Source: Escherichia coli
Lineage (GTDB): Bacteria > Pseudomonadota > Gammaproteobacteria > Enterobacterales > Enterobacteriaceae
Length of the DNA: 64,000 nucleotides
Assembly (NCBI RefSeq): GCF_003334765.1
Contig: NZ_QOWT01000001.1
Reading direction: 5' to 3' (one strand)
A program made the position numbers and the translations under genes. Of the stretch, positions 2,139 through 2,276 are shown piece by piece (position 1 is the stretch's first letter; every line of letters starts with the position of its first letter). A model generated the notes under the pieces. It ran no database searches, had not been told where the DNA came from, and was given only the letters and a program-made list of their open reading frames with translations.

Positions 2139-2276
2139 ATGAGTAATATCAGTTTGTATTGTTTGCCATATTCAGGTGGTTCTGCCGCTATGTACTATAA
2201 ATGGCGTAACGTGCTGTCGGACAATATTACTTTGAAGCCTTTAGAACCTGTGGGGAAGGGGAATGAACAGTGATTT
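2139..2276 (+). pseudogene. Orphan N-terminal fragment resembling a type II thioesterase (45 codons)
   Basis: MSNISLYCLPYSGGSAAMYYKW... resembles the conserved thioesterase N-terminus (CFPYAGGS...Y..W); preceded by GGAGG; terminates as the next gene starts. Confidence 0.3.

Follow-up and report, generated by a model that had tools for sequence, protein, structure and literature searches.

At the start of ibrA in a 64,000-nucleotide stretch of Escherichia coli DNA (contig NZ_QOWT01000001.1; the whole stretch analysed is called the window here) lies a short open reading frame (ORF) that runs from an ATG at 2139 to a TGA at 2271-2273 and comprises 44 sense codons and a stop. A preliminary description had listed it as a 45-codon ORF at 2139-2276 with a good Shine-Dalgarno sequence, a thioesterase-type N-terminal motif and a stop at the beginning of ibrA. 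The ORF is real, with its end at 2273 instead of 2276. Its Shine-Dalgarno sequence (AAGGAG, 2126-2131) stands 7 nt 5' of the ATG, and the encoded peptide, MSNISLYCLPYSGGSAAMYYKWRNVLSDNITLKPLEPVGKGNEQ, contains the motif LYCLPYSGGSA...YYKW. The stop codon overlaps the ibrA start, so that the two frames have 11 nt in common, from the ibrA ATG at 2263 to the end of the TGA at 2271-2273 (ATGAACAGTGA). The ORF and its surroundings are composed as follows, with the basis of each assignment in parentheses.

About 709-1069, minus strand: remnant of an IS66-family transposase (PGAP annotation of a 100%-identical genome)
About 1131-1732, plus strand: remnant of an IS3-family transposase (PGAP annotation of a 100%-identical genome)
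1763-1919, plus strand: clbO' fragment (ClbO residues ~710-765), disrupted by an in-frame stop and by a deletion of 11 bp (blastn, tblastn)
1919-1922, plus strand: internal deletion junction, with a loss of 1,453 bp relative to the canonical island (jump between adjacent blastn segments)
1922-2138, plus strand: clbP' 3' fragment, ClbP residues 426-504 (megablast, alignment, tblastn, PGAP)
2059-2138, plus strand: counterpart of the 79-nt clbQ 5' untranslated leader, with 2059 corresponding to the published clbQ transcription start (alignment)
2122-2133, plus strand: CsrA-binding motif CAACAAGGAGTG, overlapping the Shine-Dalgarno sequence of the ORF (12/12 identical to the motif in PMC8805033)
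2139-2273, plus strand: 44-codon ORF consisting of clbQ codons 1-41 (2139-2261), three junction-derived codons and TGA (sequence, tblastn, Pfam, PDB, BLASTP, PGAP)
2256-2262, plus strand: clbQ'::ibrA junction (alignments)
2263-3495, plus strand: ibrA (PAPS-reductase-like plus DUF3440, 410 aa), full length (homologue N-termini, mismatch map)
3480-4124, plus strand: ibrB (ParB/IbrB-like, 214 aa), overlapping the ibrA stop (ORF, annotation)

Residues 1-41 of the peptide are identical to ClbQ at 37-38 of 41 positions. ClbQ residues 1-43 match the window in tblastn with 86% identity (E 2.6e-21), BLASTP of the peptide against the representative of the ClbQ cluster gives 38/41 identical residues (E 2e-29), and the match to the ClbQ structure PDB 5UGZ has an E-value of 1.2e-21. 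The Pfam Thioesterase family PF00975 is recognized in peptide residues 6-41, which correspond to model positions 3-39 of 226 (i-E 8e-4); NCBIfam returned no match for the 44-aa peptide, as is expected for a fragment so short. At the nucleotide level, 2139-2262 and clbQ of E. coli NC101 agree at 93.5% of positions. The similarity extends upstream: in a megablast search of 1750-2400 against 5,426 complete E. coli genomes, 1922-2263 matches the clbP-clbQ junction of pks-positive strains with 87% identity, including a 15-bp gap, and the clb matches of the ORF and its flanks persist on realignment. RefSeq/PGAP labels the ORF in identical genomes as 'thioesterase; incomplete; missing C-terminus'. 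Judged by these comparisons, the ORF is almost certainly the 5' end of clbQ, the gene for the type II editing thioesterase of colibactin biosynthesis, in a clbO'-clbP'-clbQ' remnant of a diverged pks island.

Several elements of the preliminary description are borne out by this identification. The proposed remnant of a type II editing thioesterase from secondary metabolism is clbQ, with clbP' and clbO' directly upstream in native order, and the similarity and HMM searches suggested there as a check returned ClbQ and PF00975. That the ORF arose by chance and resembles a thioesterase only by coincidence, or that it is left over from ybtT, appears extremely improbable: the N-terminal motif by itself is generic for type II thioesterases and nothing more, but E-values of 1e-21 to 2e-29 against ClbQ lie far beyond chance, and clbP and clbO homology follows on the flank. 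The siderophore gene that had been offered as the other possible source fails on comparison with the YbtT encoded in the window, whose alignment with the peptide is limited to 14 residues with 5 identities (36%), against 38/41 for ClbQ. Nor is the fragment an orphan, as had been supposed, for it forms one end of a relic of ~500 bp that RefSeq/PGAP annotates as pseudogene. The relic pieces are thus already flagged as pseudogenes in public annotation; a literature search found no paper describing a clbP'/clbQ' remnant adjoining ibrA.

The extent of the relic was determined by searching the NC101 pks island (blastn) and the proteins ClbN, ClbO, ClbP, ClbQ and ClbS (tblastn) against the 64-kb window. 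The fragments clbO', clbP' and clbQ' stand in native order and orientation, with 84-94% identity per segment. The clbO piece is 82% identical to the NC101 island with gaps and 87.9% without, and tblastn recovers it in two segments (ClbO 710-724 and 729-765). The 1,453 bp missing at 1919/1922 comprise 166 nt from the 3' end of clbO together with clbP codons 1-425. The clbP' fragment (73% identity to ClbP in tblastn, E 1.5e-27) has suffered a 15-bp deletion at 2008/2009 and carries a TAG stop at 2009-2011; PGAP labels it 'precolibactin peptidase ClbP / serine hydrolase, internal stop, incomplete'. In the intact island, the same 3' stretch of clbP (the counterpart of 1922-2138) also contains the clbQ promoter and leader. 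When gaps are left out, identity to NC101 is 87.9% in the clbO piece, 83.9% in the upstream clbP piece, 88.0% in the 50 nt 5' of the clbQ transcription start, 92.5% in the leader and 93.5% in the clbQ coding part. No other clb sequence was found in the window by blastn and tblastn with the NC101 island, and the complete colibactin gene set clbA-clbS is absent; the remaining matches to the pks island are the genes ybtT, irp1 and irp2 of the yersiniabactin high-pathogenicity island (HPI) and a P4-like integrase.

The left boundary of the relic is formed by the block of IS remnants at 709-1762. The relic of the window measures ~500 bp, that of other strains ~600 bp; five strains with a different left flank retain a longer clbO piece of 271 bp (approximately residues 672-765). 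The clbO' fragment of the window was therefore cut at 1760-1763 by the bordering IS-rich segment; some strains have an extra intact IS exactly at 1762/1763. A link between the IS3 fragments of the window and those that adjoin clbA in the pks island was considered and rejected, as blastn gave no similarity. Further to the left, positions 1-822 include the C-terminus of an IS110-family transposase (ORF 121-576). The best-matching complete genomes match from 823 on, and 1-822 is not contiguous with the rest there, which implies a different IS arrangement at this end in the strain of the window.

At its right-hand end, clbQ homology fades in a purine-rich run, AAGGGGA (2256-2262), just 5' of the ibrA ATG. 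At this position native ibrA loci have CAGGAAA or CAGAAAA, within CAGGAAAATG or CAGAAAAATG, the window reads AAGGGGAATG, and clbQ reads GAGGGGAAC; from this alignment, the joint may plausibly have formed at a short stretch of purine-rich microhomology. IbrA homologues of many Enterobacterales begin with M-(6-10 residues)-(E/K)KI.TGE.VL.AA, a pattern that MNSDFSAKKILTGEDVLCAA of the window fits; ibrA is accordingly the native gene, with no codon lost at its 5' end. Neither the 3' half of clbQ, nor clbS or other clb DNA, was detected downstream of ibrAB or elsewhere in the window. As far as the sequence can be read, the clbQ'::ibrA junction is one-sided, as would be expected of a deletion or an illegitimate recombination. 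The suggestion in the preliminary description that an ibrAB cassette had been inserted into the thioesterase gene is not supported, as no clbQ 3' half or clbS lies beyond ibrAB. The comparison with another ibrAB locus also goes against it, in that the haplotypes differ by a recombination breakpoint inside ibrA. Relative to the relic-free ST131 genome Ecol_732, which has ibrAB and the TonB receptor, the window is unrelated before 2316, differs at 2323, 2358, 2364 and 2379, and is 99-100% identical from about 2380 to 6700. This mismatch pattern indicates that a segment made up of the relic and the ibrA 5' end was joined to the common ibrAB-receptor block by a crossover inside ibrA. An IbrA identical to that of the window is very common, with 9,652 blocks of the assembly collection listing it, and the relic was present in 10/10 of the places inspected.

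A copy of the relic with 96.2% identity is carried by the conjugative IncFIB/IncI plasmid pWP4-S18-ESBL-07_1 (NZ_AP022088.1). It belongs there to a module at 125236-141733 that consists of dcuR, a regulator, two dcu-like transporters, an argH-like lyase, the clb relic and ibrAB, followed by an intact TonB receptor, perC and yaiO-like genes. The occurrence of a plasmid copy at 96% implies that the module is mobile and older than its chromosomal spread. In the 3' part of ibrA (window 3163-3460), the two copies show 34 differences in ~300 nt, with pS 0.40 (over the last 330 nt of the gene) against 0.039 in the first 900 nt. Taken by its divergence pattern, ibrA is a recombination mosaic on both sides. 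The TonB-dependent receptor (yoeA-like) at 4495-6668 on the minus strand is split by a frameshift into two ORFs of 392 and 322 aa in the window; it is intact in Ecol_732 (715 aa), on pWP4-S18-ESBL-07_1 and in some relic-bearing strains. IbrA and IbrB were also considered as a catalogued defence system and rejected, since PADLOC gives only weak BrxP/DndC PP-loop similarity.

The asn tRNA genes, at which pks islands integrate, are at some distance from the relic. The asnW site (about 15796-16053) is empty, with yeeO, tRNA-Asn and yeeN contiguous according to the annotation of a 100%-identical genome. The nearest asn tRNA gene is asnV (about 11741-11816), and ibrAB, the TonB receptor pseudogene and cobUST-ldtA stand between it and the relic. 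The yersiniabactin HPI is present at about 25400-56000, and the only P4-like integrase of the window is that of the HPI (54504-55966; 82% nucleotide identity to the pks-island integrase). No integrase, direct repeats or asn tRNA gene was found at the border of the relic. The pks island of NC101 has an asn tRNA gene adjoining yeeO on one side and ldtA-cobTSU on the other, an arrangement which implies that the asnV-asnU-asnW segment is inverted relative to the window (8000-16100); the inversion matches the one reported for typical pks-positive B2 strains (PMC8209727).

Whatever its origin, the fragment has no enzymatic capacity: with Ser78 and the remainder of the fold gone, it is unable to act as a thioesterase. 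ClbQ homology ends at codon 41 (2261/2262), so that 41 of 240 codons are left when the ORF closes at 2273, and the full alpha/beta-hydrolase domain (~240 residues) is absent. The GHSLG nucleophile motif, ClbQ residues 76-80, lies beyond the fragment, as do the C-terminal Asp and His, and tblastn found no C-terminal part of ClbQ anywhere in the window. We regard it as very improbable that the 44-residue peptide serves as a functional small protein, for example as a decoy or regulator made from the ClbQ N-terminus. Its ORF has the strong Shine-Dalgarno sequence, is predicted as a gene by gene callers and is identical in two relic lineages, but the peptide represents only about the first sixth of an alpha/beta-hydrolase fold, would not fold alone and lacks every catalytic residue. 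The identity between the lineages covers synonymous and non-synonymous sites alike (zero changes in each), which argues for nucleotide-level constraint or young age and not for selection on a protein, and no independent family of such peptides was found in NCBIfam or in the ClbQ protein search.

The divergence of the relic from sequenced pks islands bears on its origin. Relic and canonical sequence differ at 53/498 sites (10.6%), and E. coli and K. pneumoniae islands differ over the same stretch by only ~1 nt. The nearest non-canonical full-length ClbQ in a collection of 5.8 billion proteins is 81% identical to the canonical protein and comes from ENA ERZ26859048 contig_18 (478 kb). This ClbQ was rejected as the source of the relic, being farther from it than canonical ClbQ is, and was used as outgroup only. 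At 395-8405 the contig contains intact clbN-O-P-Q-S of a divergent colibactin cluster, with an IS between clbQ and clbS. A three-way count over 498 aligned columns assigned 25 changes to the relic and 11 to the canonical islands, with 17 ambiguous; the long relic branch fits a relaxation of constraint. At 11 sites the relic agrees with the outgroup against all canonical islands, where we estimate that homoplasy would account for ~4. These shared sites, together with the ~1 nt difference between the E. coli and K. pneumoniae islands, imply that the relic lineage split off before the common ancestor of the sampled islands. Divergence from the canonical sequence is higher upstream than downstream (13.5% versus 7.9%, Fisher p = 0.043), a difference too weak to use. 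We consider it probable, on these alignments, that the relic stems from a sister lineage of the pks island that is ~10% diverged from every island sampled.

The alternative would be a recent decay product of an ordinary E. coli or Klebsiella pks island, with a divergence due to fast decay only. The relic branch is indeed 2-3 times as long as the canonical one (25 versus 11 changes), and the relic is near the pks integration sites, ~9.5 kb from asnV and ~14 kb from asnW. However, a divergence of 10.6% is far above neutral divergence within the species, the 11 sites shared with the outgroup exceed the ~4 expected from homoplasy, and the canonical islands of E. coli and Klebsiella are nearly identical over the relic stretch. 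The core genes cobUST and ldtA, moreover, stand between the relic and the asn tRNA genes. Among the 5,426 complete E. coli genomes, matches to the relic fall into separate bands, with 205 genomes at >=99% identity, one copy at 96% and 290 pks-positive genomes at 80-90%, and no intermediate genome between them. We therefore regard recent decay of an ordinary island as improbable. An intact island alone gives two match places and the relic one; no genome has more than two places, from which it follows that relic and intact island never co-occur in these 5,426 genomes.

An intact representative of the sister lineage was not encountered in the collections searched. A search of 100,044 species-representative genomes with a 27-mer common to the relic and the canonical islands retrieved the canonical K. 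pneumoniae island and nothing else, and a relic-specific 30-mer in metagenomes retrieved ten contigs, all with the relic already fused to ibrA and without an intact sister cluster; one of the ten is a copy of the plasmid lineage. In one low-coverage contig of the ten (coverage 1.3) the relic is combined with three canonical-type clbQ SNPs (2189, 2195, 2209), and an ST131-type ibrA upstream region is inserted inside ibrA. This contig is most likely an assembly chimera of co-occurring strains. Strain HH97, a candidate for a divergent pks configuration, was dismissed, as it has an ordinary asn-tRNA island with frameshifted genes.

The present arrangement is best explained by the following sequence of events. 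Codon 41 of clbQ was joined to the start codon of an intact ibrA by deletion or illegitimate recombination, probably at the short purine-rich microhomology. What else there was of the diverged pks island was lost in further deletions and IS events. By crossing over within ibrA, the unit of relic and ibrA 5' end was then linked to the ibrAB-TonB receptor block common in E. coli.

The joint also placed the counterpart of the clbQ regulatory region in front of ibrA. In colibactin islands clbQ has its own promoter with a mapped transcription start, and CsrA represses the gene via the leader motif CAACAAGGAGTG, as evident from EMSA and from a reporter in which the motif was mutated from CAACAAGGAGTG to CATTATGGAGTG (Rehm et al. 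2022, PMC8805033). From the sequences of the RNA-EMSA probe and primers (Table S1 of PMC8805033), the transcription start is the C of CGGAATTATCC. The counterpart of the leader at 2059-2138 is identical to it at 74/80 positions (92.5%). The AT-rich native upstream region of ibrA, known from relic-free strains, is absent from the window. It is conceivable that the relic persists as a carrier of expression signals for ibrAB, namely the clbQ promoter region, the 80-nt CsrA-binding leader, and the Shine-Dalgarno sequence with its ATG. ibrA would then be translated by coupling to the 44-codon upstream ORF, whose stop overlaps the ibrA ATG, and ibrAB would be under Csr control via the retained clbQ leader. 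At most, the relic would supply start signals for ibrAB.

The comparison of the window with pWP4-S18-ESBL-07_1, which represents one lineage pair, shows an uneven distribution of differences. The two copies differ at 15/246 sites (6%) in 1763-2008 and at 4 sites in 2009-2093; in 2094-2325 they differ at 0/232 sites, and at 0/124 in the ORF, where neutral divergence elsewhere is 2-5%. Synonymous divergence is 3.9% in ibrA (first 900 nt) and 2.8% in ibrB, and upstream non-coding divergence is 2.0%. For the 169 relic nucleotides of the zero-difference stretch, 3-7 differences would be expected at 2-4% neutral divergence (Poisson P(0) ~0.03 to 0.001), a probability to be read with the fact that the region was picked after seeing the data and in a single lineage pair. 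The stretch is suggestive of constraint; a recombination tract in the mosaic ibrA would explain it equally well.

Searches for regulatory elements as such gave negative results, which carry little weight for or against the regulatory reading. A scan of 1500-2400 for consensus sigma-70 promoters and terminators found no plus-strand site, but the same scan misses the experimentally defined clbQ promoter in NC101 and is thus uninformative. Against the regulatory reading count the changes in the promoter-proximal region, among them the substituted base at the transcription start and the upstream 15-bp deletion, and an AAGGGG run only 1 nt from the ibrA ATG, a spacing poor for an independent ribosome-binding site. 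RNA folding of 2059-2300 was not more stable than that of shuffled sequences (z = 0.68), and Rfam at a permissive E-value had no match in 1500-2600. Codons 34-44 of canonical clbQ contain a sigma-70-like site (TTTAGA-18-TAGAAT), and a promoter for clbS inside clbQ has been suspected (PMC7364221). In the window only the -35-like half of this site is left (2240-2245), its -10 half being lost because the ibrA junction replaces it.

The relic may on the other hand be a neutral scar without any role, with ibrAB transcribed from elsewhere or poorly expressed, and with an ORF that has stayed open only by virtue of its shortness and youth. Decay is evident in the remainder of the relic, neither a consensus promoter nor a structured RNA was detected, a recombination tract in the mosaic ibrA can account for the low divergence over 2094-2325, and the 205 chromosomal copies are all >=99% identical and too young for loss of the ORF. 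Against this stands the complete loss of the native ibrA upstream region, which leaves the relic or the IS remnants as the necessary source of some signals. Both lineages have also kept the validated CsrA/Shine-Dalgarno element, the ATG and the open frame, compared with 6% divergence in the adjacent dead part, and at the junction, located precisely where ibrA begins, stop and start overlap in the manner of coupled genes. We consider the chances that the relic is such a scar to be about even. That it drives or tunes ibrAB expression is a possibility we hold to be somewhat less probable. The combined reading, in which the relic is a fossil of an unsampled sister pks lineage once next to ibrAB and its clbQ promoter, CsrA leader and upstream ORF have been exapted for the control of ibrAB, is less probable still and appears doubtful. 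The account as a whole, namely that the 5' end of clbQ forms the right-hand end of a decayed relic of a ~10% diverged pks island, was joined to ibrA and may persist for the expression signals it offers to ibrAB, is in our judgement very likely.

The relic is carried by about 4% of complete E. coli genomes (205/5,426), all of them without an intact pks island. It accounts for the pseudogene features 'precolibactin peptidase ClbP' and 'thioesterase' that RefSeq lists in these ~4% of complete E. coli without pks. Screens for clbP or clbQ by read mapping or k-mers can accordingly give partial matches in strains that are unable to make colibactin. On the probable origin given above, a colibactin island ~10% diverged from every sequenced one would once have been in the Escherichia gene pool and then been lost, a further instance of pks elements being gained and decaying again and again in the asn-tRNA/HPI region. 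Should the regulatory reading be true, the relic would be a clear example of reuse of the promoter and CsrA-responsive leader of a dead biosynthetic gene for an unrelated operon, and the timing of ibrAB expression could be approached from there.

In comparison with the canonical 54-kb pks island integrated at asn tRNA genes of B2 E. coli and Klebsiella, the relic has the same order and orientation of clbO-clbP-clbQ and lies in the same asn-tRNA/HPI neighbourhood. With the IS66-flanked islands of phylogroups A and B1, which are not inserted at tRNA genes (PMC8209727), it has in common that truncated IS66 and IS3 copies adjoin it, as in several pks configurations. It differs from every sampled pks island in that ~500 bp of 54 kb are left, ~10% diverged; depending on the segment, divergence from canonical clb sequence is about 6-16%. 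Compared to ClbQ itself (PDB 5UGZ; WP_000065646), codons 1-41, the Shine-Dalgarno sequence, the start codon and the upstream clbP 3' end are retained, whereas 41 of 240 codons remain, the catalytic residues are gone, and the frame enters ibrA and then stops. YbtT (window ~29152-29955) likewise has PF00975 and the generic N-terminal motif P(Y/F)(S/A)GGS, but it is intact, on the opposite strand and 27 kb from the fragment.

The regulatory region can be compared with the clbQ leader and promoter studied in PMC8805033. The CsrA motif is identical at 12/12 positions and unchanged in its position relative to the ATG, whereas the next gene in the window is ibrA, reached through the 44-codon ORF. The base at the transcription start is A and not C, 6/50 promoter-proximal bases differ, and 15 bp are deleted ~50 nt upstream. 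The ORF differs from coupled upstream ORFs in being the leftover of a real gene and not a dedicated leader peptide. It resembles them, and cases of promoter capture at deletion junctions, in its strong Shine-Dalgarno sequence and ATG and in a stop that overlaps the next start, and as in promoter capture the native upstream region has been wholly replaced.
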